A stretch of 64,000 bases of DNA from contig NC_134028.1 of the NCBI RefSeq assembly GCF_964204645.1, positions 10,540,001 to 10,604,000 of the forward strand. The letters are read 5' to 3'. The stretch comes from Tubulanus polymorphus (lineage: Eukaryota; Animalia; Nemertea). This document shows, piece by piece, positions 23,376-57,045 of the stretch. The notes beneath the pieces were generated by a model. That model did no database searches. It saw only the letters and a program-made list of their open reading frames with translations, and was not told the origin of the DNA. Position numbers and translations under genes: made by a program. Numbering within the stretch: position 1 is the stretch's first letter; every line of letters starts with the position of its first letter.

Positions 23376-26325
23376 TTAGAGGATGTGCAGAGAGAGTTGC
23401 GTAATAATGCATTGAATATGCACATGAGTCGTATCCATCAGTCGCAGCGGGCAGTTGCACAAAAGTCAACAATTCCATTTAGTGGAGTGCAGTTGTGTTG
23501 TACCATTCAACTATGCCATAGTATCTTTTCCAATTTAAATGAACTAATACCGTATTTTCCGGCCAATAAGCCGAGGGCAGTTTTTTAGCCTAAAATACAT
23601 GGATTTCATAAAGCTTCGCCCAATAAGCCGAGGCCCTTCATCAGAGATTTTAATTCACTGATTTGTCAATTAGTTCGTCTTAATTGATGATTTAAGAGGC
23701 TGACAGTAGCGCCCGCCGATGTGTGAGAGTGCTGTGTATACTATCATCGCCGAGTGACTGTGCTATATATAGACTCACTCAGCTGATTACTATACACACA
23801 GCCATACACGCAGTACGCGGCTCACTGCTGATTTGCATATATACTAATGTATGAACTGACACGTGGTAGTACGATGAACTCGCGCGTTATATAAATGTAT
23901 ACCATTGCCACTGTGCGGTGATGGAACAATCAAAGTAAAAATAAAATAGTTCAAAATAGATTATAATTGGTAGTAAATAATGACCTCAAATAAATTTCGA
24001 CCACTTTTCTTGATTTTGACGATCATTGAGAGCATTAGAGTGGCATAGATCGGGAAGTGATTTTTTATGTCAGATCGTATCCGCCCAATAAGCCGATCAC
24101 GATATTTTGGGTAAAAATCTGAGGCTAGAAAATCGGCTTATTGGCCGGAAAATACGGTAACCCATCTAAAATATCACATTACATCAGGTCACGAAATACA
24201 ATGTCCATTTAAATCATGTGGAAATAATTATAAGAAAAAGTCATCATTTTCTAGTCATTTATCCCGAAAACATATACACCCATGGACTGAAGTAACAGTA
24301 AATCCAGGATTATTCATCAATAATGATACCGAATCAGCCATGGATGTCATTTTACGTGCCAAATTGAAAAATTATGGGATCTCAGATGATGTTATCAAAA
24401 GTGTGACAGACAGTTTAGAACAAGATAATGTATTTTATAATCTGACAGATAATAAAACAGGGCCATTTCACTCGGAATATGCTAGGAAATCATTTTTCAC
24501 ACAGCACTTTCATTTTGTTGCCCCTCAAAAACTTCAATTAGGCCAAAGTGATGAAGATTATTTGTATTATATTCCCATTGTTGATTGTCTAAATGGTATA
24601 CTGCATGATGAATCATTTTGTGAACAATTAAATAATCCACTTCCTCACTCAGATATCGACTTTCTCAGAGACGTGCACGATGGGCTTGTTTCCAAGAATA
24701 ACACATTTCTTTCAACTTCTGAAAAAAGATTAGAGTTGATTCTATACCAGGATGAATTCGAGGTAGTGAATCCGATTGGTTCTTCTAGGAAAAAACACAA
24801 AATTCTAGCTGTCTATTATAGTTTAGGAAACATCTATCCGTGTCATAGGAGCAAAATAAACCATATTCAGTGTGTTTCTTGTGCAAACATGACACAGTTA
24901 GAAAATATGGAATTCAAAAGGTGTTTGGGAGACTTATGGATGATATCAAATATATAGAGAATTCGGGAATTGAGATTCCAAATACAAACGATAGCATTAA
25001 AGGCACTTTGCTGTGCGTTTTACGAGACAATTTGGGCTCAAATGCAATTGGCGGTTTCACCGAAAATTTTTCCACATCTTTCAATTGGTGTCGGTATTGT
25101 TTATATTCTTCCCCAGACTTTAAACGAAGAAGTAGGCCTATGACAAAAAGACCAGAAAGAACGTCTGCCAAATATAATGCCTTCGTTGAAATATTGAAGG
25201 ATGGCGATTGGTCTTTCACCAGGGAATTAAAGTGAATTCTGTTTTGAATAGTCTAGAATATCATCATGTTTGTACCCCTGGTCTTCCTCCATGTCTGGCG
25301 CACGACGTATTGTAAGGCATTATCGTTTATGACCTTTTTTGATTTTTGAAATGGTTTAAAGTTGAAGATTTGTTAAGAAAAATTAAAAGCTTTAAATTAA
25401 AGGATAACGATGCGCTTGACCGTCCAGCAATATCATGGAATAAAAAGACAGGTCTTAAGATATCAGGAGGTGCAATCCAAAATTGGGTGCTTTTGCGCCA
25501 TTTACCCATTATCTGAGAAAGTTCTATAATTGATTGGACAGACAAGATTTGGCAACTGTTCATTTTGTTAAAGGAGGTTGTTGAAATTATATGTGCTCCT
25601 TGCCTAAACCATGATATGATTGATAAAATGGATACACTAATTCATGATTACATCGAATTAAGAATACAATACTTTGCTGAAAGTCGAATTAAACCAAAAC
25701 ACCACTTCTTATCGCATTACCCCACGTTGACGCTTCAGTTTCGTTAATTCAAGTGTGGACAATGCGCATGGAGTCGAAGCACTTATATTTAAAAAAATTT
25801 GCTCGGCGTGCACAGAATTTTAAGAATATTTTGCTGACATTATCTGAGAAACACCAATTTCTGCAATCCTACTATTCTGCAGGCAATTTGTTTGGCCAGG
25901 CCTTAACCTATGAGAAAACTGTAGCTTTTTCAGAAACATTGTATAGTCGGGAAATTGTGCAATGTGTTCGATTGAAGATACCAAATACAAGCATATGCTC
26001 TGTTAGCAATGAACTTATATATAATAACACCTTATACAAACATGACATGTATGTAGTTTTGGAATCGTCATCGGAGAAAGGTATTGTGCTTGGAAAAATC
26101 ATTCTTTTGCTCGTAAAAGAAAATAATGAACCCTATTGTATAGTTAAGAAAACAAACACCATTTACATTCGTCGATTCGGGGTACACAAACTAGACTCAA
26201 CCGATAAGCTCAGCTGTGTAAGAATTGATGGTTTGTTGGATTATCACACACTACCTTCTTACATAATGTCTGGTGATACAGAAGTGGTTACATTGAAGCA
26301 TGCGGTGCCTACATACATGTACTAG
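22845..26325 (+). pseudogene. EnSpm-like transposase with N-terminal C2H2 zinc fingers (stops, frameshifts, MITE insertion)
   Basis: CPFKSC...HLSRKH, LILYQDEFEVVNPIGS, DNLGSNAIGGF.ENFS, CRYC, GLPPCLAHD, KPKHHFLSHYP, WTMRMESKH. Confidence 0.85.
23550..24157. mobile_element. pogo-type MITE inserted in the transposase zinc-finger region
   Basis: Perfect TIR CCGTATTTTCCGGCCAATAAGCCGA, TA TSD; excision restores ...ELITHLKYH in frame. Confidence 0.92.
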
Positions 26326-26574
26326 GAATTTTATTTTAGACTTTGATAATGAACCCTATTGTATAGTTAAGAAAACAAACACCATTTACATTCGTCGATT
26401 CGGGGTACACAAACTAGACTCAACCGATAAGCTCAGCTGTGTAAGAATTGATGGTTTGTTGGATTATCACACACTACCTTCTTACATAATGTCTGGTGAT
26501 ACAGATACAGAAGTGGTTACATTGAAGCATGCAGTGCCTACATACATGTACTAGGAATTTTATTTTAGACTTTG
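26123..26574 (+). repeat. Direct tandem duplication (~223 bp x2) of the transposase 3' end
   Basis: NEPYCIVKK...AVPTYMY encoded twice; second copy has 6 extra bp. Confidence 0.95.
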
Positions 26575-26740
26575 CCATTTGGCGAACCATTGGATACAAA
26601 CTATACGTACACATATTGGACAGAGGATAAAAATGATTCAAAGGCTGCCAAAACGGAAGATGTGCTGGTACGTCCATCATGAATGTTCAGAGCTCAATTC
26701 TTCTTAAAACAAGTAGTGTATTGTATATTTTGACTTTTAG

Positions 26741-28430
26741 GTCGTATGCAATGCATTAGCGAATGGAGATTTCCTTAAATTGATGGTAAAGGAAAGGACT
26801 ATTGCGGTCCGACAGGGTACCTGTTATGGTGAATTTGTTGTTAATGGTAAGTTTATAAAGCTATTTTTGTAGCTTTGCAAAAATATGGTATTGATTTTGA
26901 AATGAAAGTATTTAATCATTTCCTATGAATATTTTGCTAGTTGCTAAGAAAGTTGGGATCCATTCAGAAGATGTGAAAGTATGTCTGGTAGACGAAGAAG
27001 TAGAACTAGAGGATGTTTTTCAGTTCTGCACGATGAATAGTAAACTCGCACTATTAGGCAAGTTGAAAAAGAATTCCATCTATTTGATGGATTATTCATT
27101 AATAATTTAAGTCTTATCGGTCAAAGATGAAAAATGATTGATTAAGAAGTTAATTAATCTCATATTTTCATTGTAGAGTACCAGGATCCCAGTTGCTCTA
27201 TATCCCTGGCTTCAACGAGTGATACGCTGATCATAGAACCTACATGTGAAAATAACCACTCTACATGTGAAACTCTGAAATCTACAGTCTCTACCCTGAA
27301 TTCTAGTAATGCATACACGATTCCCTGGCACAAGATAGCCCAAGGCATCACAAAAATACTAGCTGCCGGGACGATCTTAAAACCAGAAAAAACGACGAGA
27401 AGCCTGGGAGAAAAGATTTTTTAAAAATTGCTGCGCAGCTAGTTGCAAAATATGACAATTCCCTGGCATTTTCCCTCTTCTTAGGAGACCAACTTATTTC
27501 TGACGGACAAGAGAGCATAATAAGGTCATTGGAAAATCATCGTGATAACGAAAACCGTAGTTCTTGTCCTAAACGAAAACGCGAACCACTGGAAAGTCAT
27601 GTTATTGTCGATGAAAAGCGACTAAAACTATCTCATCTCTACAATGATGGAGAAAAAATATCAAATGTCGTAGAACAACTAATAAACCTTATAAAAGCTG
27701 ATATCAAGGTTAACATGCCAACTACAGCTTTGAAATGCAAATGGCCACATTTGTTTTAACTTCCCTATTTTTTGTAATATTGCGAATACATTACACGTGT
27801 TGACTTCAAAAACATGGAAGAAAACGTACTCGCAAGGAGTAGGTCTCTGTATGCGTATCTAAAGAAAACTAATGTCAATGGTATCAATGATTTTGAATTT
27901 GATGGAATTCATTCTGCACTACCTTTACTCGCAATGGCATTCAAAGAAAAGGTAACCAGTGTAATCAGGAAAGTACACGTGATAGCAGAAGACTTTGACG
28001 AAACACTCCCAGCCAATCCATTGATAATCCATCTAAGTAAGTGTATACGAAAAATGAGCTCTGATTTTGAAATTGAATTCAGGATTATGCCTCAGAATCA
28101 TTTTTTTTTTAAATTCCAGCTTTGGGAGATAACACGGTTCAGTACATGTTACGTGTCGACGGTACAGTCATTCTTCAAACGCGAGAATATATGAATGCTC
28201 TTAAAGGCTTATTTGCTTTATACTTCAATCTGAATATTCAATATCCATCTGATGCAATGTGTCAGTTGGAGTTTTTCCATCGGTATGTTGAAAAATTATA
28301 CTTAATTCAATATCTCAATCATCGTTTTCATTCTTGTAGTTTCATGGTAAGGTACAACGCACCAGGAGGCAAGAATAGAGGGAAGGTATTGAAGTTGGCG
28401 AAGGCTTAAGCCGAAGCGGAGTGGTTTTCG
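26741..28430 (+). pseudogene. Second (accessory) gene of the EnSpm-type element, intron-containing, decayed
   Basis: KCKWPHLF, ALPLLAMAFKE, LFALYFNLNIQYP...QLEFFHR motifs typical of the companion gene of animal EnSpm elements; GT-AG introns. Confidence 0.6.
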
Positions 28431-31604: not shown

Positions 31605-34600
31605 AAAATCCTGGGGGAGAGCCCCCAAACACCCCAGGATGGCATAGCACCTCGCTGCTCACTTCGTTGTTGTAAAAGAAATTCGAAAAGGTGCTCTATT
31701 GAATGAGTGCTACCACTCATCCAAAAAGTAAATAATTCGTACACCTAAATTTTCTCTATTTTCACATACCTACTGAATGAACAGGAAATGAAAAATCTGC
31801 TGTCTGCTTTTGGAAATCTTATATCTCCCTGTGGCATCATCCCATTGGCGCATCTAAGTACAGGTAGTCTTCCTAGCCTAGACATCATGTCGAATAATCA
31901 TTCAATTTGCCTTGTCTCCATGGAAAATACTAATCATTCAGTGACTGGTTGATTGAAAGTTTCCTAGGTCAATATCCAAATTAGTCACTTTTGGGGCCTG
32001 TTCAAAAGTGACGATTTATTCAATTGACAAATTAAGTGTTTTTGACTCTCACATACAATTTACCTCGTTACCTATGTTAATTTCTGTAGCTTATTTCTGT
32101 AGCCTACGACATTTTTACTGAGACATATATCAATCAATCTGTCCACGATAGGTCTTTATGGGTAAATGAAGTGTGGAAATATACGGGAAATCCTGAGGGC
32201 CGAAACGATAATCAATAATAACAGATGACATGGTTTTTCCCATCCTCCCTTGCCAGGGCGCTTTTGCCTCCAACTAAAGTAGTCGCCGAGTGAGGCTTCA
32301 GTCGAGTGGCAACAAATGCTGACAAGCGAGGATGGGTTTTCCCAGGGAGTTCAAAAGGGCATCCTGCTTTTAAAGGGATACGGTGACCAGTCAGAATGTG
32401 CCCGTCATAAGGACCTTCCGATCAACAACGATACGGTTAACAAAAATAGAAGTGATGTCGTTTTTCAGCACTGCAATGAACGAATGACTGATATGAGTGT
32501 GGATGCTGGGGTATATTGTTATATTGGGGTCGATTGTTTATATAACTTAGCAACCTGTCCACGCGTTTGGACTGAGGTAATGTGTCATAATAAATCAATT
32601 ACAGAGTGACGATTTAACCGAGGTAAATCGAATGCGAAATAACAGGACCGGATTAATAGCGACGATTAAAGCAAAATGACGATTTATAAATGATTTAACC
32701 GCAGAAATGTAAAGGAAATAAAGAAGAAATGTGACGATATAGCCAGAATGACGAATTATGCACTGACAATTAAAGCGATGTCAATCAGCTTTAAGTCGTA
32801 CATGTATATATGTAATTACATTATAAATATAGGGCCTTCATATATAAACTAGAGGACCGAAGGTTCTGAGGCTCGAAAAATATCAGAAATTCAAAGGTGT
32901 CCCCCTTTCGAGTTTAGAACATTTATATTCCGTGGTATTATACTGGTACCTTCTGAAACATGGCCATGGCCGCGACTGCACATCAATACTTGGCATTGGG
33001 TTTTTCCGTGTTATACTTATATATACATGTACAACGTAAAGTAAACGGAGATCGAGAAAACACATACACTGAACGCTTTTACGGTTCGCAGCGCTTTTAC
33101 GGCGCTTTTTACAAAATGTGATCTACCGATCTCAGAAAAATTATGTGACCCTAGTCTCGATAACCCTCATCCCCCTAAATCTCAACATATTTCCACTGCT
33201 CTCTGGAAGGATGGAGATGAAGAAAACATTTTCATCCCTGTACCGCTGTAGCAGCAGTAACACAGCGCAAGCGCCATGACAGTTCTTCTTCTGTTCAGTA
33301 CGACACGCGCTGTTCTGCACGTGTGGCACGGGACAACGAGAATGCTAACGGCGTTAAAAATCGACATCAGTAGCACCAAAGCTAACCGTACCATTTTTTC
33401 TCACTACTTGAAATAACCTATGCGCAAAGCCAGAGAAAAATTTGCGATTTTAGAGAGAGATAATTGTAATGCGACACTCATCATCGATTCGACACAGCAG
33501 TTGTACTTGAATACTCGTAGTAAAGCGCGTTCGATTGATGCGCGCGGGCAGTATCTTATCTTCAAACACAAAACTATCGTATTGTTTCCAATAATTAATT
33601 TGTTTACACTCTTCGCGTAAAAGTAACGCGACACATCTGAATTTCTTCTGGACAGCAAAGTAAAATTAGGCGACAATTGGAACTATTTAATTTCGGGCAT
33701 TGAAACATACATACGCTTTAAGCGGCGTGATCAGTACGCACAATAGGGAGCATTTATTGATTGCTAGAAAAGCGATTAAGCGACTCAACTTGTCGAACTG
33801 AACGGTTGATTGTGCGAATAATACTAGTCGCTCCCTACACTACGGCACATACGATCTGTTAAGGCTCTTTTCGAGCCTAATAATCATTCAGTGACTGGTT
33901 GATCGAAATTTTCCTTCCAAGGCCAATATCCAAATTACGTGTAGTCAAATATCCGCTTTAAGTCACATGCATATACACGCACATAAACGCATACGCATAC
34001 ATTTAATATTGATACGAATTAACTATTACCCATATAAACTATGATTTAAGAGCACAATCCGTATAATAGCTGGTTTATCTCTCAAACAGTGGACGACTAC
34101 TACAGTAGAACCACATTCTAACAATCCATTGGGGGGATAAAAAGTTAAGGTATTATCCGATGGTTCGTTCGATCCATTTGATATCATACCCCTGGCGTGA
34201 TGAAACACAAACCAACTGGTTTCTGTTGAGTAGGACTAATTGGAAGCCATTGTGTGTCTAGTACAGATAACCCACAGGCCATGTACTTGAGGGCGCTTCA
34301 TCAACAGAATTTTGCTGATTGACAGATAATAGCATCTGTATTTAGTGAAGCTTGAGACTAATATGACATTGATGGATTAACTTGAGCGTTTTCTTAGTTT
34401 CTATTTCTTACTGACCACATTAACCTCATTAGATTACAGATGTTTATACTTTTTTCAGTTTCAGTTCAAGTGTATGTTCCTAAAAGCTGATACAACTGAT
34501 ACAGATAACACATAAGGATTTACATATACATCGGACAACGGGACTATGCATTTGTCTACGGAATAAGTGAAAATACGAATTATGGAGTACGAATTAGACA

Positions 34601-35024
34601 CAGAATTTTAAAGGGAATAACGTTACTGAAAAACGGGACCAATTTATTTTTACTGAATAAACACTTATACGGTTTAACCGGAGACAGATTAATCAAAGTT
34701 GACTGTAGAATAAAAAGAAGTTCACATGTCATGACGCCTACACACAACCAAAATTTTTTCCCATCGACTGGCACACCATCTGGTGAGGTAATAGGTTCAT
34801 CTTTGATGACGTGAGTCGATCCTTCACCTCACGACATTTTCCTTCACGTTATGAGTTTATCCTTCAAGTTACTACATTATATATACTTCATGTTATATGT
34901 AATGCACACCATGACCTAACTTGGCAACAGTTTTCATAACGCAAATGCATCTTGAAACGTGCAATGTCAATTCTAAAGAAATTGTGCCTAAATGAGGCAA
35001 ACTACCGCAGATTTGCTGATCGTT

Positions 35025-35213
35025 AGTAATAGGGGTAATAGGCTTTCAGGCCAAAGGTCGAAGGGTCGAGCTCGTAAAAAAATGAAAATAACAATAATTT
35101 ACAGTTGAATTAGTCGCGCACACTCCTAATTCAACTGTAAATTATTGTTATTTTCATTTTTTACTCACTCGCCCCCTCAACCTTTAACCTGAAAGCCTAT
35201 TACCCCTATTACT
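35025..35213. repeat. 189 bp imperfect palindrome at the left edge of the Polinton-like region
   Basis: AGTAATAGGGGTAATAGGCTTTCAGG ... CCTGAAAGCCTATTACCCCTATTACT with paired inner arms. Confidence 0.9.
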
Positions 35214-35458
35214 CTTAAAATATTTATATACATGAATAAAATATATATGAATAACATATAAATTGATAGATTATTCAATATAAAAGTGTGAGTAAAGTGT
35301 GAGCTCTTATAGAATAGATATATAGATATATTTTAAACATTATTTCAATATTTATATTTGTATGAGTTAGATTTTTAAACATTAAAAGTGTTAGTAAAGT
35401 GTGATTGAAATAATTCATATATATATACATGAATAACATATAAATGAATAAAATATAA

Positions 35459-38416
35459 ATGAATAAAATGTGTCAAATCAATTTTAAAAAAAAATTTAGT
35501 ATTAAAATGGAAGCAAATAAGTACTTTTTAGATTTTTATAGATTTCTAGCAAGTTCATTAGATAATTTATCTAAAAGTTTAGTTGATAATGATTTTGTTA
35601 TAACTCGATATTATTATCCAAATGAACAAGATTTTAAATTATTGAGATATAAAGGCGCAATTCCTTATTCATTTTATAAAACACACAATGATTTTAATGT
35701 AACAGAATTATTAAAAGATCAATTTTATGATCAATTAAAAGAGGAGTATGTGAAAGATGAAGTGTTTAATAGAACATTAAATATTTGGAACCATTTTAAG
35801 ATGAAAAATCATGGTGAATTAGTAGATTTATATTTAAATTGAGATGTTATGATATTGGCTGACATATTTGAAAAATTTAGAGAAGTTAATTTGAATCATT
35901 TTAATGTTGATCCTTGTTATTGCTACTCTAGTCCTGGTTTAACCTGGCAATGTGGTTTAAAATACACAAATGTAGAATTAGATTTATTAAAAGAACCAGA
36001 CATGGTTTTATTATTTGAAAAATCAATTAGAGGTGGAATTAGTGGTGTTATGGGAGATAGATATTTTAAAGCAAATGATGAATATAAATTATTATATATT
36101 GACGCCAATAATTTATATGGTTGGGCAATGATGCAACCTCAACCATATAAAAATTTTATACTAACAGAAGTTGAAAATGATGATAAAACTGATTGGGAAA
36201 GCGCAATTGCGAGTTAAAAAGATGAAGCACCAATTGGTTATTTCTTTGTAGTTGATTTAGAATATCCTGAAAATATAAAGTTTAAAACAAGAAACTTACC
36301 TTATTGCCCAGAACATTTAACTGTAGATGATAGTTATTTAAGTGAATACCAGAAGAAAATAAAACCGAAAGATCATGTTTTTACAGAAAAATTAATACTT
36401 ACTCAAAATAATAAATACAATTATATCGTTCATTATAGAATGTTAAAATTTTATCTAAAACAAGGAATGAAATTAAAGAAAGTACATAGATATATTGAAT
36501 TTAATCAATCGAAGTGGTTAGAAAAATATATAGATTTCAATACTCAACAGATAACCATATCAAAAACAGATTTTGAAAAAGATTTCTTCAAATTAATGAA
36601 CAATAGTTTTTATGGTAAAACATGCGAAAATATTAGAAATAGAAATGATATTGAATTAGTAAATAATTCTGAAAGATTAAGACATTTACAATCAAGTCCT
36701 AGACATTTAGGAAATAAAAGATTTGAAGATTATTTAACAGCAGTTTAATTAAAAAGAACGTCAATGAAATTTAATAAACCTATATTCATTGGTTCAACTG
36801 ATTTAGAAGTATCAAAATTATTAATGTATGATTTTTATTATAATGTTTTACAACCACTTTTTGGGGAAAAGCATATTAAAATATTATATTTTGATTCTGT
36901 AACAGCTGACACCCCAATATTATTAAAATGTAATGATAAAATATTAATTAGAAGAATTTCAGAAATAATTCCAAAACAAAATGAATGTTATATTTCATAT
37001 GGTGAAAAAGAATTAATACAAATAAATGGATTAATGGATGTTTGGACAAGAAATGGATGGAAAAAATTAAAGAATATTATTAGACATAAAACAAATAAGA
37101 AAATCTATAGAGTTAGAACTAAATTAGGATTTGTAGATGTTACAGAAGATCATAGTTTAATTAAACGAAATGGCGATGAAATAAAACCAACTGATATAAA
37201 AATTGGAGATGAATTATTACATAAAAGATTTTTCCAAAGAATGAATCATATGTCATTTGATGAAATTATTGATAATATTTATAATATAGAACCTGAAACA
37301 TTTGAAGAAAAAGAATATTTTATCAAAGGATTTTTCATGGGTGATGGTTCAGCAGGTGTGTATAATTATGTTTGGGGTAATAAATATTGTTGGTATTTAT
37401 GCAATCAAGACTTAAAATTATTAGAAAGAATTAAGAAATTCTGTGAAGAAGTTTATCCAAATAAAACATTTAAAATCATGGATGTTATGAAATCATCAGC
37501 AGTTTATAGAATACTTGTAAATAATCCTAAAGATTTTGCTATAAAATATAATGATGAATTCTATATTCATGCAATAGTGAAAAGTAATACTTCAACAAAA
37601 GAAAAGATAGTACCAGATTATGTATTAAATGCAAAAAATAATTTAAGAAAGTGGTTCTTCATTGGATTCTATGCCGCAGATGGCATTAAAAAATTTACAA
37701 AGGATAAAAAGATAACCTTTGCACAGAAAGGAAAAGTTGCTATATCAGGATTAAATATATTATGCAGTTCACTAGGATTTAATATGAATATAGAATTAAT
37801 TAAATCTAAACCAGATTGTTTTAATTTAAGGCATGTAGAAAAAGAATTAACAGAAGAAGTTAAAGATTTATTTGAAATATATAACCCATCAGATTATGTT
37901 TATGATTTATCAACTGAAGATGGTACATATAACTGTGGATTTCCATTAATTGCAAAAAATACTGATGCGTACATACTAAAAATCAAGACAAATGACATAA
38001 CAAAAGACTTGAAAACATTAAAACATCATTTTGATTTTTGCAATTATCCCAAAGATCATGAACTATTTAGCAATGATAATAAAAAGATTCCTGGTAAGTT
38101 TAAAGATGAATTAGGGGGTGATGAAATGATTGAATTTGTTGGGATAAGAAGTAAAATGTATAGTTACAGAACAAAAGATCATGAAGCTAAAAAGTTAAAA
38201 GGAATAACAAAACATGTGGTTGATAAACATATAGATTTTCAAGATTATATAAAGTGTTTATATAACTCAATTGTAATGAAACACAAAATGAATTGTTTAA
38301 GATCAGAAGATCACGAGATGTACATTAATGAAGTTGAAAAAACTAGTTTGAATCCATTTGATGATAAAAGGCATATTTTAGATGATGGTATAAGAACATT
38401 ACCTTATGGCCATTAA
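35459..38416 (+). pseudogene. Protein-primed family B DNA polymerase (N-terminal half missing; in-frame stops at ~35842, 36217, 36748), intein-containing
   Basis: YLN*DVMILADIFEKFR, SIRGG, YIDANNLYGWAM, KLMNNSFYGK, YFD-[intein]-TD, GKFKDE, RSKMY, KKLKGI, FDDKR. Confidence 0.95.
36896..37960 (+). mobile_element. Intein (355 aa) with LAGLIDADG homing endonuclease in the pPolB YxD/TD motif
   Basis: Starts SVTADTP right after YFD; block B VTEDHSL; LAGLIDADG motifs KGFFMGDGS and IGFYAADG; block F YVYDLSTE; ends AKN followed by +1 Thr; removal restores YFDTD. Confidence 0.95.
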
Positions 38417-39198
38417 AACAGAAAATCAATATCATCATACTCGAAATCACTATTGGCTTCTTCATTTTCATTTAATTGTTCTTGTATAATTTGTTTAGGT
38501 TCTTCCATTTCATTTTTCTCATTTAAATAAAGTTCGATCTTGTACCACATTTCATCTCGCTCTCTTTGTTTCTTTTTGTATGTTAATTCGTCAAATGGAA
38601 TTATAATATCGATGTTCATATAATTTACAATCTTATTTAAAAAGAATTCATAATTAATTGAATCTGTTATTCTATTTTCCAAATGATACATTAATATTTG
38701 TTTGAATATTTTTTTTATATTTTCCATATCTTCTTCTGTTAATTTAGGTTTTTCATAATAATCGTTAAATAATAAATATAAATACATTTTCTTTTGTTTT
38801 GTGTTAAATGTTGATGGAATAATTGTTTTTATAATATCTTTTTTAGTTATTTCACCATTTTTATTTTCTTTTATTTTCATTTTTTCAAGCCATTGCACAT
38901 ATTCTGGTGTATGATCTTCTATAGAAAATATTTTAAAAATTTCATCTAGATATTTTAATTTTGGTTCTATGAGAAAATCTCTAGTTTTTTCATCACCCCA
39001 TAAATTCTTTTGCCATCCACATTCATTACAAAATAACACAGTACCTTCTTGTCTTAAGGTCGCATATCTACATTGTGGGCATTTTCGTTTATAATTTAAA
39101 CAAGCTCTTTTATAAAAAAGCTCTTGGTATTTTCTTACGTTTTCTTTATGTTTTATTGTTCTATTATGTAGATTTGAATTACTTGTTGTAATAATCAA
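38413..39198 (-). CDS. Zn-ribbon protein resembling poxvirus A2/NCLDV late transcription factor VLTF3 (frame extends upstream to ~39300)
   Basis: CPQC-x13-CNECG, then PKLTEEDMENIKKIFKQI, INYEFFLNKI, RERDEMWYKI, matching my recollection of the VLTF3 C-terminal pattern. Confidence 0.55.
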   Translation of the reverse strand: MIITTSNSNLHNRTIKHKENVRKYQELFYKRACLNYKRKCPQCRYATLRQEGTVLFCNECGWQKNLWGDEKTRDFLIEPKLKYLDEIFKIFSIEDHTPEYVQWLEKMKIKENKNGEITKKDIIKTIIPSTFNTKQKKMYLYLLFNDYYEKPKLTEEDMENIKKIFKQILMYHLENRITDSINYEFFLNKIVNYMNIDIIIPFDELTYKKKQRERDEMWYKIELYLNEKNEMEEPKQIIQEQLNENEEANSDFEYDDIDFLF

Positions 39199-39324
39199 TT
39201 TACAATATTTACAATAATATGTTTTTCTTGTTAATTCATTATATTGTTTTTCTAACTTTTGAACTGTTTCTTTATTATCTGGTAACGTTTTCTCATATTT
39301 TATTTTTTCTAATAAACTATTTTT

Positions 39325-39741
39325 TCATTCATTGAATTCTACTTCAAATTCATTAGAAATTTTATCTATATGTACTTTACGAAATTGATGATTCTCCCAA
39401 TCTTCTATATTTTCAGGGCTATATTTTATTTGACAAGGCTCGCAGAAATGATCTTTTATATTATCCTTGTCATAGAATAAGAAAGGTCTTTTCCAAATAA
39501 TTTCAGGTTCAATTTCAGCAGAATTACTATTACTTTCATTACTATCAACATTAGCCGTTGTGCCATTAATTTTACACTTCTCTGAAAGTTTTTTAACATA
39601 ATTTCTTGAGAATAATTTATTACATTTTGGGCAGTTTATTTTAGGGGGTTTATAATTTTCATCATGTTTTTTCATATGTCGAGCCATATTACTTTTTCTG
39701 AGAAGTTCACCACAAATTTCACATGCTATCTTCTCATCCAT
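39325..39741 (-). CDS. C2H2-type zinc-finger protein
   Basis: CEICGELLRKSNMARHMKKH, CPKC, CEPC...H...H. Confidence 0.75.
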   Translation of the reverse strand: MDEKIACEICGELLRKSNMARHMKKHDENYKPPKINCPKCNKLFSRNYVKKLSEKCKINGTTANVDSNESNSNSAEIEPEIIWKRPFLFYDKDNIKDHFCEPCQIKYSPENIEDWENHQFRKVHIDKISNEFEVEFNE

Positions 39742-39809
39742 TTATTTAGGAAAAATTTTATTAAGATTAATTTTTAGTGATGAGCGGTAATTTTTTTATG
39801 TTATAAATA

Positions 39810-40568
39810 ATGGTAGAATTAAAAGAATACAGAATATTTGTTGATTCTAGAAAACTTACAAATTATAAATCACATAATTTATTAGTACAATTAGATAGAG
39901 AATTTAAGAATTGTGTAGATTTAAAATTAGTAAATATAAGTTTATGTAATTCTTTTTATAATGTATCGGATAAAAGTCTAGAACATTTAATTTTTTCAAT
40001 CTTTTACAAAAAAAGGAATAAATGGTTTTTTATATATTTAAAACCAGGATTATATAATTTAGATAAATTAGCACAAGAAATTAATAGAAAAGCTCGAGCT
40101 AAATTAGGAAGTGATTCCGGATTTAGTATTAGAATTTTAAAAAGTGATAGTTCTAATAAAATAAAGATTAGGTTAGCTAATGACGAACAATTTAAATTTA
40201 CAGTAAGAAAACCTTTAGGTAAACTGTTAGGAATAAACCCAGATATTGTTACAGCATACGCAGAAGGTAGATCAAATTTAATACCTTACACACATTTTTA
40301 TATTTATTGCAATTTAATTAATCCTACAAAAACATTTGAAGCAACTAAAGATACAATTTGTAATTCTAGTATATTAAATATTTTACCATTAAAAAATGTT
40401 AAACAATTTGGAACGCAAATAAATTATAATTTAGCTGAATGTGATTTTAAACCTTGTATTCCACATTTCAATAATTTTAAATTAGAAATAAGAAATCATA
40501 ATGGTTATTTAATTGATTTGAATAACTTTCCTGTAATATATGAATTAGTTATAAGATGTAAAGAGTAA
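39810..40568 (+). CDS. Minor capsid (penton-like, single jelly-roll) protein
   Basis: FVDSR, NSFYNV, PGLYN...LAQEIN, FYIYCNLI, ILNILP, LEIRNHNGYLIDLNN pattern typical of Polinton/virophage mCP; genomic context. Confidence 0.72.
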   Translation: MVELKEYRIFVDSRKLTNYKSHNLLVQLDREFKNCVDLKLVNISLCNSFYNVSDKSLEHLIFSIFYKKRNKWFFIYLKPGLYNLDKLAQEINRKARAKLGSDSGFSIRILKSDSSNKIKIRLANDEQFKFTVRKPLGKLLGINPDIVTAYAEGRSNLIPYTHFYIYCNLINPTKTFEATKDTICNSSILNILPLKNVKQFGTQINYNLAECDFKPCIPHFNNFKLEIRNHNGYLIDLNNFPVIYELVIRCKE

Positions 40569-40584
40569 TTTTTTCATTATATAA

Positions 40585-41165
40585 ATGAATATAACTGTTT
40601 GACCGAGTATATGTTTTGGATTTGATTTTAAACGTGAGAAAGAAATGAAATTTGATATTAATGATGTAATAACACATATTTAAAATATTGCATTTTCTAA
40701 TGAAACAACATTTGAATATGAAACAACAATAAATAAAGAAACTTTAAATGTAGAAAAGATTACTAATTTAATTAGAGAATCTTTAAGATTTTATGAATTA
40801 GATGAAGATTTTATCATAGATGATATTAAAAACATATTAACCAAAATATATGATAATCATAAAAGTAGTAATGAAATAAATGTTGAAATAATTATAAATA
40901 AGATAACTAAATATTTTGAAGATAGTAATTTTTTTGATTAATTAATGAGTGGTAATAAGTGGATAATAACTGGATTATATAATGGAGCATTACTATCAGT
41001 TGGAACTGTTGGTTATTCAATGGTATTAAAAAAGTATTCAAAATGGAAAGTGTTAATGTTGATAGATTTGATATAAATGACATCTTAAAATTAACATTAG
41101 CAGTTACTTTATCTAATTTAACTATTGATTATTTGGAAAAACAAAAATATATTCCTCCCATATAA
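40585..41165 (+). pseudogene. Two small viral ORFs (broken homologues of 56502-56735 and 56801-57022)
   Basis: Nucleotide similarity to copy 2, with stops and frameshifts. Confidence 0.65.
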
Positions 41166-44442: not shown

Positions 44443-45703
44443 ATGAGTGGGAGTTATATAAGTCCTTCTAAGATTTCTAGAATATCTAATGCTATTAAAG
44501 CAGAAAGATCACATCATATAATTACTCATAACCCTTCTAATATTAATCCCGATGAAACTTTATATGTTAGAATTCCTAGATTAACACAAAATACTTTTTA
44601 TGTTCCAAATAGTACTTTTTATGCTCCAAATAGTATTTATTTATCAGCTGATATAAAAGTAACTGGTCATGATAATAATTATGTTGTCGATAATGTTGGG
44701 AGATATTTGATTAAAAAATTAACTATAAAGATTGGTCCAGAAACAGTTTTTTCATTAGATGATTATAATTTATTTATGCATTATAAAGATTTATGGTTAA
44801 CTAAAGAAAATAGAAATAATATGATATTTCAAGACATTCAATCGGAAAACCATAATAAATTAAGATTAGGAGATAATGACGCAATAGTAACTCGTGCCGC
44901 AGATAATTTGATTAAAAAGGTTTATGGAAGCAAATATAAAATTCCATTAGACTTTGAATTGATAAATAATAATGCACCTTTATATAAATACGTAATTCAA
45001 GAAGATATTATATTTGAGATAACACTTGCTCCTGTAAATGGAATTGTATTATCTAGCGTTGTTAAAGATATGGGATATAAATTATCGAATATATGCTTAG
45101 AATATGACACAGTAACCAATGAAAATATTGCTAGCACAATTCAAACTCAATACAATCAAGGATTTTCATTATTATATGATTATATTGATAAATTTAAAAC
45201 TGTAACTATTAATGCAAATGATGAAATAATTAATGAGAATATTAACTTCCCAAGAAGATCTATTAAAGGTATATTAATATTTTTTACCATTGCAACATAT
45301 TCTAATGGTGTAATAAAGGTAGATAATTATTATAATCCTGAAATTACAAAAGTAGAAATAACTATCGAAGGAATAGCAAATAAAATATTTTGTCAAGGAA
45401 TGAGAATGATGGCCAGAAATTAGAAAAAATTTTATGAATGAAAAGGTAAAATCATCTGAAAATTGTAATATTAATCAAATTGATTATTATACCAGCAATA
45501 AATATGCATTATGGTTAGATTTTAGAACAACAGAGGATAATTCATTACATGGTTCTGGAAAAAAACTACAGTACACTAAAGATGGAATACAATTATTCAT
45601 GAAAAAGAAAAAAGGAAGCTTAAATTTTAAAATGCACATTTATATTATATCTGACGCACAATTAAATATTGTAAATTCACAATTAGATAGTATTCAATAT
45701 TAG
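44443..45703 (+). pseudogene. Major capsid protein (double jelly-roll type), frameshifted near 45410
   Basis: ~420 codons, beta-rich, HNPSNINPDETLYVRIP, IPLDFE, ICLEYD, YALWLDFRT, SDAQLNI; located next to integrase and ATPase; 21 nt internal duplication at ~44590-44633. Confidence 0.75.
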
Positions 45704-45733: not shown

Positions 45734-46850
45734 ATGGGTGGTAAAAAACTCCTAATACTAAAGAACAATATTTAAGAAATTTATATTACAACCCTGAGAG
45801 TTCGGTTGCTTATTCTTCTACCAAAAATATATGGCGTCAAGTAAAACAAGATAAATTAGATAAGATAATCCCACAAAATTTAGTTAAATATAAAGATATA
45901 AATGAATTTATGTTAGAACAACCAACATATACAACACATAAAAAAATTGTTAGAAAATATAAAACTCGTAAAACTATGGTAAGTTATGTAGATCAACAGT
46001 GGCAAGGAGATTTAATTGATATGAAAAATGTTAAGAAAGATAATGATGATTATTGGTGGATATTGAATATAATTGATATTTTTAGTCGTTATGTACGGAG
46101 TTTCCCACTTTATAGAAAAGATGCTGTACAAACATCAAATGTTTTAAGAAAATTTCTTTCGGATGACCAGAAAAAATACAATTTGTTGATGGAAAAGAGT
46201 TTGATAATTCACTTGTTCATGAACTCTTAGACAATCATAATATTAAATATTTTTCAACAAAATCGGATAAAAAAGCAGCAGTTGTTGAACGATTTAATAG
46301 AACATTAAGAACAAGAATGTGGAAATATTTTACAGCAAATAATACTTTTAAATGGATTGATGTTTTACCAAAATTGATAGAAGGATATAATAATTCTTAT
46401 CATTCTTCTATTGGAATGAAACCTATTGATGCTAAAAAACCTGAAAATGCTAAAATTGTTTGGAATAATTTATATGGAGCATTTCTTGTAGATGATTTTG
46501 GTGAACCTAAATTTAAAGTTGGTCAAAATGTTAGAATTTCTAAGTATAAAAAGATATTTGATAAAGGATACGATCGAAATTTTACTAGAGAAATATATAA
46601 AATAAAAAAGGTTATAACAACAAAACCATATGTCTATAAATTAGGAGATTTAGATGGTGAAGAAGTTGATGGCTACTTTTACGAAGAAGAATTAAGTTTA
46701 ACTACTGAAAATCTAGAACAAGAATATAAAATTGAAAACGTATTAAAAACAAAAACTATTAAAAGAAAAAACTATTCTTTAGTAAAATGGGTTGGATGGC
46801 CATATAAATTCAATGAATGGATATTATCAAGTAAAATTAAAAATATATAA
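45734..46850 (+). pseudogene. Retroviral-like (rve) integrase with C-terminal chromodomain, frameshifted
   Basis: LYYNP, WQGDLIDM, IDIFSRY, VDGKEF, KAAVVERFNRTL, YNNSYHSSIGMKP, FKVGQNVRIS, GYFYEEEL, LVKWVGWP..FNEWI. Confidence 0.93.
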
Positions 46851-47456
46851 ATGAATTAGGAATTATTTATATTTGAGCCTCATAATATGTTAATTTCTGG
46901 TGTAACATATTGTGAAAAAACTTATTTTATATTAAATTTATTAGAAACTGTTTAAAAAAACTATTTTGATAATATAGTATTATTTTGTCCAACATATGAA
47001 TTTAATCAAACTTATGATAGAAATATTACTAGAAATAATAAATTTATTTATATTAGATCATAAAACAGTTAAAGAAAATTTAGATAATTGTATTAAAATA
47101 GCAATTGATATTTATAAAGGATCAAATACATTATTCATTATAGATGATTGTGCTAATCTACATGATTCAAAAGTTAGAGTGAGTTATGCTATTTAGCTTT
47201 TTCTGGCAGACATTTTGGGATAACAACATGGGTTTTAAATCAAAAATATAATTCAATTGTTAAAGACTTTAAGGAGAATATAAGATTTTTAGTTTTATTC
47301 TACAATAAAGATAGAAAATCGATGAAAAATGCACTTGAGGAAAATGATATTATTCCACATGATTTACATAATGAATATATGGATAAGTTGAAAAATATTA
47401 AAAGATCAAAATAACTATTTAGATTACAACACCCATTTAAATATGAATTTATTTAA
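46851..47456 (+). pseudogene. A32/FtsK-like genome packaging ATPase
   Basis: Degenerate Walker A (MLISGVTYC.KT), Walker B LFIIDDCA, SGRH motif; several stops and frameshifts. Confidence 0.85.
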
Positions 47457-49949: not shown

Positions 49950-50487
49950 TTAGTACTCTAGCACTCTGGTATGAAACCCACATCTTCCAATTACTGAGTT
50001 GACATTTACGCAACTTTGAAGAAACGCAAACTCAAAAGTCAGATAAAAATGACAATGTAATGGCAATAAAAGGGTCTGGTCAGAGTGGATATAGAGCTCG
50101 GGATATTGTTTGTTGGACCTGTCGTAAACCAGGCCACAAATCAATGAACTGTAGGGAAAAAGGGAGCCATGCCCCAAGGCCAAGGGAATGGTGTCATGTC
50201 TGCAGAAATAACTCACATAATTCAAATGAATGTAGAAAGTCAAAAAGTAAAAGTGGCCAGGGTGCTGGAGTTAATACTGTAACGGATGAACAAAATGATA
50301 ATTCATTCCAGTTCAAATTGAACGATGAGATTGAATCGTGTACAGGAAATCCGTTGCCAGATCCGTTGTTAGTAGACTGTGGGGCTACTAGCCATGTTGT
50401 TAACGATAAATCAAAATTTGTGAGCTATGAGAAAGATTTTGTTCCGGAAAAACATTATATTGAACTGGCCGATGGCACCAGAGATAA
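49950..50487 (+). pseudogene. Ty1/copia gag-protease fragment
   Basis: Two CX2CX4HX4C knuckles (CWTCRKPGHKSMNC, CHVCRNNSHNSNEC), aspartic protease LLVDCGATSHV, IELADG. Confidence 0.88.
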
Positions 50488-51214
50488 TAACTTGATAATA
50501 ATTGTTCAACTTGTAATATCAACATAGGTAAATCCCAAAAAGCAAGACACAATAAAACTAAAACACATTTAGAGAATAAATTGAAATTAGAATATAAAGA
50601 TGATATATTAGAAACTAAATTAGATGAATTAAAGAATGAAAAAGAAACATACAAATGTGATACATGTAATCAATCATTCAGTGATAAAAGATATTATAAA
50701 GAACATTTAAAATCTAAAAGTCATATTAGAAATATGAATAAGAAACATAAGACAATTAAAAGAATAAGAAATAAATTAAACAATAAAAGACCATACATGG
50801 AAGATGTAAGAAATTATATTAATTCATTAGATAATAAAAAAGATATAAAAAGATTATGATTCAAATGATGTTATAGATATACTTTATTATGAAAATCATT
50901 ATATGTGGATTAAACAAATAGATTTATTCTTTAGAACAGAAAGTGATTACCATAATAAAATATATCTTTGTAGAAAATGTTTACATAAATTCAGTAATGA
51001 AAGTACATTATTAAATAATAAACAATTATGTGAAAATCATGATTATTGTAAATTAGTTTTACCAAATGAAAAGGATAAAATATTAGAATTCAAAAAATAT
51101 GATTTCAAAAATAAAGTACCATTTGTTATATATGGAGATTTTGAATCATTAATTAAAGAATTAACTGATCAAGATAGAAAAGAAATATATTATAAAAGAA
51201 AGAAATTAAATTAT

Positions 51215-54070
51215 AAATATAACTGCAAAGCAGCGATTACGGGTTTTCTGGATGCATGTGATCGAAAGGAAAAATTAATTACCGGGTATTCGATGGAAAA
51301 AATAAAATGAGATGATTTGGATATTATCGGAGCAATCCTCTTTTTGGTTGAATGGTCTAACCCCAGTATAGTCCCCCGTGATTTGGAAATTCTCGGAGCC
51401 CTCCTTTATTTACTTACTAAACGACGTCACAAACTGTTATTTCGCCGGCGCTTGTTGTCTAACAATTCAATTCAATTATTTATTTACAGTAACCTAATAA
51501 GTAATTTTAAGTTTCAAATAGGATGGAAAGTACATTCAGACAATCTGTTGGTTCAGAGAGACCGTATCAATTTATACATTTCGTTTCGAAGCTGTCAGTT
51601 GCCGAATCTGAATGAAGATGAATTTTATTTGACGAAATCGGCGGAAAATATATAACAAGAGCCCCAAGGGGCACAATGGCCAGCCTGTCAGATTTGCTTT
51701 TTATAAATGATGTAATCTGTGGGTTATATTTATCAATATACACTCCCTGCTCAATGTCATTTACATAGTACAATCGTGTGTTAACACAGACAGCAGGAGC
51801 GAATGTAATATATAAATACTAAGTTATTGTATTGTTCAACGCCCCTGGTGGCCATATACAAAAACCAATGAGCTTGAAACTCACCTCAATCATAGACCAT
51901 GTCATTAGCTACAACTTTCCAATTAATTATGGTAGCAAAATATGCATAGGTACGAATGTAATATAGAAATACTAAGTTATTGTATTGTTCAATGGTGGCC
52001 ATAAACAAAAACCAATGAGCTTGAAACTCACCTCAATCATAGAACATGTCATGAGCTACAACTTTCCAATTAATTATGGTAGCAAAATATGCTTAAGTAT
52101 CAAAATGATGTGGCAAAACTTTTTTTCCACCTATGAATGAGTACTGATGACCCCAAGATGGCCGCCAATTGCGTCATAATTGCCTGGTCAAAAATAGCCT
52201 CTCGGATATGAAAGATCCTTTTCCAAAGAATACCCATTACAAATTGCAATGAAAAATGGCACACCATTAGAAAGCTACAGGACTCGGAATTCAGGCCAAA
52301 ATTAACATTTTTGGGAACAAAAAAGGTCACAGGACGGCCATCTTGAGTCCGATCGACCCAATTTTTCTCATGCCGATGGGCCCTTGGGGGATACAAATAT
52401 ATACGAATGATCAAGGTTATTGATAAAAGTGTCTTCAAAATTTCCCTCGAAAACTTCTAAAATGTGTAAAAAGTGCTGATTTTGGCGAACAACAATGGCT
52501 GCCAGTCGGCCATCTTGAATCTGACAGGGCCAGTTTTTGGCCTGAAGATGTGTCTAGGGTAGATACACGTATAAACCAAATATCAAGACATTACCTTGAA
52601 GCGTCTTCAAAACTTTGGAACTCTCATGAACTATCTAGATGGTTATCTCTCGACTCAATAGATTCAAGACCCATCTCAAAACAACTTTGTTCCATGCAGC
52701 ATACCATTAACTCTCGGAAAGCGAATTGGATTTAACATTTTTTTGGGCAGAATAAAATTTGATTGAATTTGCAATTCGAGCACATGGCTAATTAGCATAT
52801 CAAGTTCATACACTCGATTTGGGAAAAGAAATTTTTTGCGAACCTTGCGCAATTGTCAAGGATGAATTTTCTGTAGAGCAAATAAAAATTCCTCCCAAAC
52901 ACCAAATCAACTAAAGATTTCATAGAAATCGATCTTGAAATACGATTTTAAATCTTAAAATAAAACCCGGAAGTAAAACAATAGACGATACCGCGGGTTC
53001 ACGTGAACACCTGATTTCTGTAAACGAAATGTTGGTTGTGACAAAATTGTTCAGACGGTTTTAGGTGGTAATAAGTACTTATTCGATGAAATCAGGCCTA
53101 TGTGATATCCAAATTTTGACTTTTTTATTCTCCAGACCTCCCTGATATAGAAATAAAAAATTTGGTGGTACGAATAGTGCAATCACAGCGCCGACGGCGA
53201 CAGAGCCGTGTTAGAGATCGGCGGAGTGAAAATTGCGGAGGTGGACGAACACGAAGAAGTAGGCTATTGAGCTACTTGAATCGCGAAAACTCCTGGCGCG
53301 GCCCCGACGCTTTTCGTTGATTAAGTAGTACAAATATCAAGCAATGGGTTTTCACAATCTACCGCCGGTGTTTACCGGATTTCAATATCACTCCAAAATT
53401 CAAAGAAACCTCGAAATATCGAACCGCAACACTTTCGGTAGATATCCGCAGCTGCCCAACCGGGAAACTTATTTGTTGATAGCATCGATAGGATCCATCA
53501 TCTTCTCCCGTCAAGGGATTCGAACCCACTAAGCTAAAGCCGTGCCAGAATCGGGTCGGGCCAATCACAGCGCTTGTAACAAACCACATTAGGCTTCTGT
53601 GGAATTTCCCAGTAAATGGGCCAATCAGCGAACACGTAGCGAACGCGGAAGTATTGTCGCGTGTTGATACATGACGTCATGCGCAAAAGCGCCAGTAATG
53701 AAATCACGATAATTCACGTGAACAGCTGCTGATATTTTTAGATAAACCAATCACAGGGAAGACACAACTTCCTGATTGGCTGATAAAAATTGAAATTTTC
53801 CCGATTTTATTTTCGTGAAAAATGCAGAAAACATTTTTATGAAAGCCTATTTCAAAATTCTGCTCGCTACGATTCCGAGAATGGATTACGCTTAAATACG
53901 TGATTTGTTCGAATATGCCCTCACTTGGCAAGCAAAAGAGCCTTTTGTGTGGAAACCATGTCATTTAAATTCGCTCCATTTGTATAGTAATAGGCTCAGC
54001 CTACGGCTGGCCTAATAATAATAATCAACAGAATTTCAAGAGGGTTTTCGACGAAAGTCAGAAAACCCTA
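51215..54070 (-). mobile_element. Composite Helentron/Helitron2-type insertion within pPolB
   Basis: Minus strand begins TTAGGGTTTTCTG and ends CAGAAAACCC...GCTGCTTTGCAGTTATATTT (asymmetric IR plus 3' hairpin); removal rejoins the pPolB frame. Confidence 0.75.
51654..52625 (-). mobile_element. Nested Helentron-associated element (family of 30396-31604)
   Basis: Reverse-complement match to 6650-7300; end hairpin GAGCCCCAAGGGGC next to AACAAG. Confidence 0.8.
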
Positions 54071-55373
54071 ATGAAAATGATTTTTCAGATGAACCACCAA
54101 AAACAAATACAATTAAAAAGTTTCATCAATCAGCTGCAGCTTTCGGATTATATATTAAATCTGATTATCCAGAACTAATTGAAAGTGAATATTATCATTA
54201 TAGAAATGAAAATGTTATCAATCATTTTTGTGACTTATTAATTGAATATGAAATAAGATTTAGTAAATCATTGAATACAAATAATGAAATTATAATGACA
54301 GAAGATAAAGAAGCATTTGAGTTTACAGATAAATGTTATTATTGTGAAAAGATATTTAATTATAAAGATAAAAAAGTAAGAAACCATGATCATTTGAACG
54401 GAAAGTTTAGAGGCGCTGCGCATGAGAATTGTAACTTACAAGCTAAGAAAATTAACTTTGTACCAGTTATATTTCATAATCTATCAGGATATGATGCACA
54501 TTTATTTATCAAACAGTTATGTCATAAAATAGAAGAAATTAATAATGAAATAGAAAGATTAAATTCAAATAGATCAAAAGATAAAATACCAACTTATAAA
54601 TTTAAAATGTTAGCTAAAACATCTGAGAATTATATATCATTCCAATTTGGGTGTTTAAGATTTATAGATTCATATAGATTTTTAAACAGCTCATTAGATA
54701 ATTTATTAAAAAGTTTAATCGATGATGAATTAAAGATATTAAAACAACACTACCCAAATAATGATGATTTCCAATTAATGAGATATAAAGGCGCAATTCC
54801 ATATTCATTTTATAAATCACATAATGATTTTAACATAAAAACTAATAACATAACTGATGATTTAAAAATATTAAAACATCATTTTGATTTTAGTAACTAT
54901 CCTAAAAATCATGAATTGTTTAGTAATGATAATAAAAAGCGACCCGGGAAGTTTAAGGATGAATTAGGTGGCGAAGAAATGATTGAATTCATTGGTATTA
55001 GATCTAAAATGTATTCATATAAAACTGAAGAACATGAAGCAAAAAAGTTAAAAGGAATTACTAAAAGTGTAGTAGAAAAGAATATTCATTTCAAAGATTA
55101 TATCAATTGTATATTCAATGAAGAAGTTAGAAAACATAAGATGAGATGTTTAAGATCAGAAGATCACGAAATGTTTATTGAAGAAATTGAAAAGATTAGT
55201 CTAAACCCATTTGATGATAAAAGATATATTTTAGATGATGGAATTCATACAGTTGCTTATGGTTGTAATTTAGATGAATATCTAAAATTTAAAAGAGAAG
55301 AAACAAAAGAGAACGAGATAATAAACAGGATTCTAACGTGTTAATCAAATTTTAATAAAAACATGTTATTAAA

Positions 55374-55727
55374 ATGGAGAGTAAACAAGCACACAGTGAG
55401 AACAACAAATTATTTCTAGATAGAATAAAAGATACTTCAAATGTCAAATCAGTAGATTATAAATTTAAGAAGTTAAAAGAATTAATAATCCATAAGAAAT
55501 ATCTAATTACAAATATTGATACAGTTACTAACAAATATGGAGATAAATTACTTATACACTTAGAATATGAAGGATTAAAAGGAAATATATATAAATTCAG
55601 AACATATTTACCGGATAGATTTCATAGATTATCAAGTGAAGATTTAGAAGAATTATGTTCCGGTGATTTCTATTTCGTATACAAAGGTAAGAATGAAAAA
55701 GGGCACCATGAAATAGATTTCGAATAA
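55374..55727 (+). CDS. Small viral protein, paralogue of 49584-49910 (possible OB-fold)
   Basis: Intact 117 aa ORF directly downstream of pPolB. Confidence 0.6.
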   Translation: MESKQAHSENNKLFLDRIKDTSNVKSVDYKFKKLKELIIHKKYLITNIDTVTNKYGDKLLIHLEYEGLKGNIYKFRTYLPDRFHRLSSEDLEELCSGDFYFVYKGKNEKGHHEIDFE

Positions 55728-55741
55728 AATGTGTAAAATAA

Positions 55742-56450: not shown

Positions 56451-56501
56451 ACTGTTGGACCGAGCATATGTTTTGGATTTGATTTTAAACGTGAGAAGGA
56501 A

Positions 56502-57022: not shown

Positions 57023-57045
57023 ATACATATTTTTTTGCTAAATAA

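Follow-up and report, generated by a model that had tools for sequence, protein, structure and literature searches.

Inteins are absent from metazoan genomes according to two reviews in their accessible parts (PMC5784728, PMC8529194), and the viral inteins listed in the accessible part of the first are those of large DNA viruses. A stretch of 64,000 nucleotides from the nemertean Tubulanus polymorphus (contig NC_134028.1, positions 10,540,001 to 10,604,000; hereafter the window) contains an insert in a DNA polymerase gene which an earlier reading, made from the sequence alone, had described as a full-length intein with a homing endonuclease. The locus raises the questions of whether the insert is a genuine intein, whether it resides in the chromosomes of the animal, from where it came, and whether it moves.

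The insert, its residues, and its predicted fold

The insert occupies positions 36896 to 37960 of the plus strand as 355 codons without a single stop, lies within a 550-residue open reading frame (36764-38416), and is flanked by YFD and TDA; the sequence-only reading had placed it exactly, splitting YFD/TD (the slash marks the insertion point), and every motif it had named (Ser1, a TEDH block B, two LAGLIDADG motifs, block F, a Lys-Asn end, and a +1 Thr) is found in the translation. Motifs, profiles, and a structural model together describe an intact 355-residue intein in which the two halves of a Hint splicing domain surround a two-motif LAGLIDADG endonuclease. Specifically, i) the N-terminal splicing region (36896-37225, plus strand, end approximate), recognized by a TIGR01445 match over residues 2-88 and a match to PI-PkoII (residues 34-111), opens with Ser-Val-Thr and includes block B as T83-E-D-H86 (37142-37153); ii) the endonuclease domain (37301-37840, plus strand, limits approximate), recognized by model helices 136-150 and 248-262, matches to I-DmoI, and conserved Asp residues, has catalytic-position Asp150 (37343-37345) in motif 1 and Asp262 (37679-37681) in motif 2; and iii) the C-terminal splicing region (37856-37960, plus strand, start approximate), recognized by motifs and model, carries block F Asp337 and ends in Lys354-Asn355, followed by the +1 Thr. 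The insertion point falls between the Asp and Thr of polymerase motif C, a site that is free of any insert in close alleles of related polymerases, and the GC content of the intein (24%) is like that of the polymerase around it (23-29%).

Lys354 stands in place of the penultimate His, which is usual but not obligatory in class 1 inteins. This had been called non-canonical, a description we do not retain: among 211 related inteins cut from 441 proteins the C-terminal dipeptide is His-Asn in 111 and Lys-Asn in 71, which rules out the penultimate Lys as a special trait.

Similarity to Hint and LAGLIDADG domains, proposed earlier as a check, was found with both profiles and structures. TIGR01445 (intein N-terminus) scores 30.9 bits against a cut-off of 24.5, and LAGLIDADG_3 (PF14528) 25 bits against 22.5; Intein_splicing (PF14890) gives an E-value of 3e-7, but its 30.8 bits fall below the cut-off of 35.8, and a PHROGs search with the intein returned no match at 1e-10. 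An AlphaFold2 model built on an alignment of 79 sequences has a pLDDT of 94.7, and its top full-length matches in the PDB are the endonuclease-bearing inteins TliVMA, PI-PkoII, PhoVMA, PI-PfuI, and PI-SceI (E 1e-17 to 8e-12); the middle of the model matches I-DmoI with a TM-score by target of 0.67-0.75. The archaeal TliVMA, PI-PkoII, and PI-PfuI and the yeast PI-SceI share the Hint and two-motif LAGLIDADG architecture with the window intein, which however is only 12-18% identical to them, is shorter, and lacks the extra domain of PI-PkoII. Further structural matches are to phycodnavirus, Pandoravirus, Marseillevirus, Megavirus, and HaV01 polymerases, the Megavirus model being 26% identical compared with 41% for the best giant-virus contigs. 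Both catalytic Asp residues and Lys278 are conserved in all 14 aligned rows of inteins from protein-primed polymerases (pPolBs), although these rows are not independent. With these attributes of a class 1 pol-c intein present (S1, T83/H86, N355, the +1 Thr, and a Hint fold split around an insert), sequence and model agree in identifying the insert as a real intein.

The host polymerase and its element in the animal genome

The earlier claim that the intein sits in motif C of a protein-primed PolB holds, but the polymerase of this copy is broken, which had been overlooked. On the N side (35459-36895, plus strand) a 5′-truncated remnant runs in one frame, 57% identical over 464 residues to the intact polymerase P0003 (stops read as X) and weakly matching PF03175; on the C side (37961-38416, plus strand), whose first residue is the +1 Thr of motif C, identity is 59% to P0003 and 41-54% to other HNH-type pPolBs. 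As a test for a pPolB in the element, these identities of 57-59% were accompanied by a PF03175 score of 62 bits, above the cut-off. Because the polymerase is 5′-truncated and its frame is interrupted three times before the intein (stops at 35840, 36215, and 36746), the 550-residue frame is a fragment, and this copy of the element is a decayed passenger unable to yield a polymerase. We considered the open intein frame as a sign of selection within the decayed copy and rejected it: at the rate of 3 stops in the other 631 codons, 1.7 would be expected in the 355 intein codons, and the chance of zero is about 0.18.

At 35 kb the GC content drops to 24%, having been about 38% before, and an AT-rich block begins at 35025 that contains the polymerase, a weak capsid match, an integrase with a chromodomain, and ATPase-like fragments. 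The left end of the element is a 189-bp imperfect palindrome starting AGTAAT (35025-35213, no strand assigned), defined by read ends with unlike flanks and by a contig crossing in from the host flank; no counterpart to this left end was found within the window. A putative gene for the major capsid protein, which is of the double jelly-roll type in Maverick/Polintons, is split over two frames (44443-45703, plus strand) and matches Capsid_N at E 7e-4, below the cut-off, and a retroviral-type integrase with chromodomain (45745-46850, plus strand) is frameshifted, with rve (E 3e-4) and rve_3 on two fragments plus the chromodomain (Chromo, E 9e-5), every score falling below the cut-off because the gene is broken. 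Reading frames at 46978-47414 (plus strand) probably represent fragments of what we take, from their motifs, to be a packaging ATPase; they gave no relevant Pfam match, and no Pfam match to a protease was seen in the frames scanned. We conclude that the element carrying the intein is a multicopy, integrated Maverick/Polinton. With the Maverick/Polinton elements (adintoviruses) described in the accessible parts of PMC8097293 and PMC8502044 it shares a pPolB, an integrase, a putative capsid gene, an end starting with AGT, and many insertion sites.

A second decayed copy (54025-63600), 78-92% identical and with its own palindrome (63057-63512), lies about 16 kb away and also matches Capsid_N at E 7e-4. 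In its polymerase an in-frame deletion fuses the exonuclease region to the C-terminal end. We had considered this copy (approximately 54000-63600) as an empty allele and ruled it out, since its polymerase lacks the entire stretch matching 35697-37979, and with it the palm region and the intein site.

Does the element belong to the animal? Upstream, exons of the host PIG-X gene fall on the plus strand between 5588 and 10444, within frames 5588-5833 and 10184-10444 (PF08320, E 1e-4 and 2e-10). The second frame serves as a marker of the host: across 83% of its length it is 100% identical to a Tubulanus polymorphus protein encoded on a 27-Mb contig, the single match among 8 candidates. Reads from 4 of 11 listed sequencing runs were aligned to window positions 32000-41000. 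In run X6, which consists of raw reads from a separate study under the same species label and of which 12% was examined, depth is 180-250 over the intein and 330-390 over the polymerase sequence beside it, against 10-30 in the lowest host-flank bins. As expected from many insertion sites, 1684 reads stop at 35025 and continue into unlike flanks (agreement 0.34). One contig of run X1 spans the junction between host and element free of differences, reaching 405 and 41 bases to either side, although X1 may be the assembly's own data. The sequence-only reading, which had placed the intein in a Polinton-type element within an animal genome, is supported by the contig across the junction, the deep X6 coverage, and the varied flanks at the element end.

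That the stretch is instead a contaminant or a chimeric assembly we regard as exceedingly improbable. The sharp GC step at 35 kb is what such an origin might leave, and the linkage from the junction to PIG-X comes from the assembly itself, perhaps along with X1; against this are the error-free X1 junction, the intein coverage and many flanks in raw reads of a separate study, and the decay of both the element and its neighbor 16 kb off.

Most reads lack at least one of the three stops of the window copy, and its decay is therefore at least partly private. Many reads from other copies diverge from the window sequence at 35081-35082 and at 35525. Depth over the intein dips to about 0.6 of that over the polymerase flanks, and a comparable dip lies outside the intein at 39224-39825; no joint skipping the intein was present among the 15 joints displayed for 32000-41000 (147 more were not displayed). 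Just before the C-terminal junction, two positions are variable in 42 of 112 reads, roughly a third, and these reads may be empty alleles overrunning the junction or intein copies with another penultimate residue.

Relatives, ancestry, and known systems

Protein searches with the intein region gave 263 longer proteins (120 listed), 87 of similar length (87 listed), and 2078 representatives (150 listed). Inteins were reduced to 176 at 85% identity for a FastTree phylogeny, and a second tree (IQ-TREE, 44 rows) was built from the rows nearest the window intein plus outgroups, a selection by likeness that leaves its root and the direction of transfer uncertain. The best relatives among those listed, P0003 (63%), P0004, P0005, P0010, and P0011, carry this insert within a protein-primed polymerase that is intact. 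PF03175 was found in the three related polymerases scanned, and relatives of the window polymerase also carry an Endonuclease VII/HNH domain. The seven best non-self matches of the intein are all inteins of Polinton-type polymerases, at 41-63% identity. Outside this group, 37 matches in viral contigs included none above 41% identity over the full length, nearly all of the locus-search matches being of giant-virus type, and 10 loci in prokaryote genomes reached at most 36% across the full length. The best of 80 metagenome loci (L038, 31-4197) is a pPolB whose intein is split over two frames between the two LAGLIDADG motifs.

Ten non-redundant pPolB inteins form one clade in the FastTree phylogeny (support 1.0). 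The clade recurs in the 44-row tree (100/100), where its sister group (95/87) consists of 12 inteins from RNA-primed PolBs, 8 of them in Pol-delta-like and 4 in T4-like phage-type polymerases; deeper branches are all in Pol-delta-like polymerases except for two topoisomerase rows and one unassigned row, and one Pol-delta-like sister intein (P0020) is 88% identical to a giant-virus contig intein (L001). The intein tree and the tree of C-side polymerase sequences broadly agree among HNH-type pPolBs, which argues for an old entry of the intein into Polintons; vertical descent alone would also give this congruence. The comparison of intein and polymerase phylogenies had been proposed as a check, and in the intein trees the pPolB inteins lie inside those of RNA-primed polymerases of giant-virus and phage type. 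A clear discordance is P0005, whose intein is 48% identical to that of the window while the C-side polymerase is 25% identical (path lengths 1.6 and about 7), and whose polymerase belongs to a different class with a VSR-like motif, a label that we apply by presumption. An intein this similar in so distant a polymerase suggests that it crossed between polymerase classes; an AU test (p 0.082) does not prove that P0005 is nested among the other pPolB inteins.

The sequence-only reading had proposed transfer from a giant-virus (NCLDV) type polymerase to a Polinton followed by endogenization in an animal. A relationship to giant-virus PolB inteins of the same site is supported, whereas the nearest relatives are other Polinton-type inteins; and if the claim is read as a transfer particular to this animal it fails, the jump being old and the pPolB inteins forming one clade broadly congruent with their polymerases. 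The donor proposed fits 8 of the 12 sister rows, but the 4 T4-like rows make the sister group mixed, and several donors fit. It is rather unlikely, in our estimate, that the intein was donated by a T4-like phage polymerase, or that transfer ran outward from Polintons. The four phage-type sister rows lie in polymerases that match PHROG 262 along their length (P0014 and P0018 tested), P0014 is the best non-pPolB match of the intein, and the uncertain root leaves room for outward transfer; on the other hand, nearly all deeper branches, like most sister rows, are Pol-delta-like, and eukaryotic cells are common to Polintons and giant viruses. We favor a giant virus, probably sharing a cell with a Polinton, as the most likely donor: one old entry of a pol-c-site intein from an RNA-primed polymerase would have been followed by long co-descent with Polinton lineages, the intein being kept alive by homing, and at least once by a crossing from one polymerase class into a distant one.

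Among known systems the closest are the pol-c inteins of giant-virus PolBs. The Mimivirus intein sits in motif C at YGD/TDS according to the accessible part of its description (PMC549080), a motif identical to the insertion site of P0003, and the earlier claim that both inteins occupy the same catalytic motif is therefore correct. Giant-virus pol-c inteins and the window intein share the motif C site, Ser1, TxxH, a LAGLIDADG domain, terminal Asn, +1 Thr, and a length of about 350 residues (for Mimivirus by description, in the same accessible part of PMC549080). Unlike them, the window intein (at most 41% identical to those on giant-virus contigs) resides at YFD/TDA in the protein-primed PolB of an integrating element, falls in its own clade, and is present many times over on animal chromosomes. 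The HNH and VSR domains found within Polinton pPolBs (Jeong 2023, PMC10748475, accessible part) are likewise nuclease inserts in a Polinton polymerase, and were supposed to be intein relics in the accessible part of Krupovic 2024 (PMC11071308); they are located elsewhere and have no reported splicing domain, whereas the window supplies, with an entire Hint intein placed in the catalytic motif, the true intein that was only supposed there. Invertebrate iridovirus inteins, cited in the accessible parts of PMC549080 and PMC5784728, also occur in a virus of animals, but are not described there as integrated, and an integrated giant virus of Chlamydomonas (10.1101/2024.09.03.611062, accessible part) has inteins in a chromosomally integrated virus, but in an alga and an RNA-primed PolB. 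The word "intein" is absent from the main text of two Polinton/adintovirus papers (PMC8097293, PMC8502044) and of PMC10748475. In the accessible open-licence literature of PMC and bioRxiv (including PMC12220804 and 10.64898/2026.10.13.758929) we found no Polinton/Maverick polymerase described as carrying a Hint-type intein, although such cases may lie unremarked in survey supplements, RepBase, InBase, or subscription journals. As far as we have searched, then, the intein allele is of a known type, the class of its host gene is new, and it is the first to be seen residing in animal chromosomes.

Several observations touch on the wider family. In P0010, P0011, P0163, and P0166 the motif C residues ahead of the intein site are ASD or SSD, the usual Tyr being missing. 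Eight of the 211 inteins (P0007, P0103, P0104, P0106, P0110, P0120, P0348, and P0421) lie in type II topoisomerases at a look-alike site, DxD/TDG (CDG in one). The inteins of the T4-like phage-type polymerases P0014, P0017, P0018, and P0312 are nested among giant-virus-type ones, as in a possible virus-to-phage jump. Many partial members of several clusters lie on ENA contigs as long as 1 Mb, suggestive of eukaryotic genomes. A Candidatus Thiodiazotropha bin from Ctena, presumably a clam symbiont, is the recorded source of P0163, which may be host DNA. In the green alga Chloropicon primus, P0071, annotated as a DNA polymerase delta catalytic subunit and encoded on a 1.86-Mb contig, has a related full-length intein at YGD/TDS, a case of a giant-virus-type intein in a cellular nuclear replicative polymerase.

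Empty alleles and the case for homing

Alleles without the intein at the motif C site (P0264, P0129, P0131-3, and P0135-6) occur in two clusters of relatives. The P0160 cluster has 121 members, and among the 15 listed P0264 is empty, its two flanks being 99.7% and 100% identical to those of the intein-bearing P0261. For the P0004 cluster, of 136 members, the 15 listed comprise 7 with the intein, 6 empty, and 2 that do not cover the site. Divergence between its intein-bearing and empty alleles is 1.3-1.7% more than 20 residues upstream of the site, reaches 42% and 40% within 10 residues of it on the two sides, and falls to 16% at +21 to +50 and to 4% beyond. Such divergence, steep only near the site, is as would be left by an intein that brought its donor flank along and by empty alleles that escaped cutting. 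Cutting of empty alleles by the endonuclease is predicted, with indirect signs in this one cluster.

An alternative account of the empty alleles is precise loss of the intein, or recombination with intein-free Polintons, rather than incomplete homing, and we think it improbable. Empty alleles of the P0004 cluster are 24% diverse in the 10 residues upstream of the site and about 2% elsewhere, and recombination with other families could be the source of such local divergence; the same diversity fits escape from cutting equally well. Moreover, upstream divergence is 0.6-0.9% among intein-bearing alleles compared with 2.1-2.3% among empty ones, and the intein-bearing alleles all have one flank type, as after a recent sweep.

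We consider it likely that the window holds a complete intein in motif C of the polymerase of a multicopy Maverick/Polinton, predicted to be self-splicing and probably spreading by cutting intein-free copies. By the established chemistry of class 1 inteins, the precursor made by an intact copy would undergo an N-O shift at Ser1 helped by TxxH, then transfer to the +1 Thr and Asn cyclization without a penultimate His, restoring motif C; the spliced polymerase would keep the element viable, and the freed LAGLIDADG protein would cut the empty site of another copy, whose repair would copy in the intein together with a short stretch of flank. Homing among Polintons could take place during co-infection, from one free genome to another, or from one integrated copy to another, and the data fit both equally.

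A different outcome, in which the intein still splices but homing has been lost in the host lineage, leaving the intein fixed or nearly so and inherited with the element, seems doubtful to us. It would accord with the 15 displayed joints, the congruent trees, and the clusters P0157, P0161, and P0166, where none of the listed members covering the site (15 listed in each cluster) is empty; nor was an empty member seen in the four-member P0010 cluster. However, two other clusters are polymorphic for the intein, and the endonuclease residues are conserved across polymerases only 40-59% identical, where erosion would be expected had homing been lost. If the intein is still spreading between copies, as we prefer, a broader scenario may be entertained, though we would not put it at even chances: that a giant-virus-derived intein lineage in the Polinton polymerases of several animal phyla homes today between integrated germ-line copies, with empty copies escaping via codon changes at the catalytic motif, as the first natural protein-splicing homing system of animal nuclear genomes.

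We wish to stress that this is a complete intein in many copies of animal DNA, yet in a virus-like element and not in a host gene. The lack of inteins in animals can here be studied in a natural setting: do splicing and homing proceed in animal cells, and do multicopy elements provide the empty targets otherwise missing in sexual animal genomes? The intein also cleanly marks gene flow that links RNA-primed polymerases, of giant viruses or phages, with the protein-primed ones of Polintons, and that links distant Polinton classes; with the polymorphic clusters, homing and the escape of targets can be tested directly.

Elsewhere in the window, a GC-rich block at 13000-18700 has reverse-transcriptase and RNase H-like frames with weak Pfam matches, which we take to resemble a DIRS-type retrotransposon, and broken transposase-like frames at 24115-28409, with no Pfam match, presumably resemble a CACTA/EnSpm-type element. 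A Gag/protease-like fragment at 50003-50527 (Pol_BBD, E 1e-3) runs into polymerase-like N-terminal zinc-finger frames at 50491-51310.
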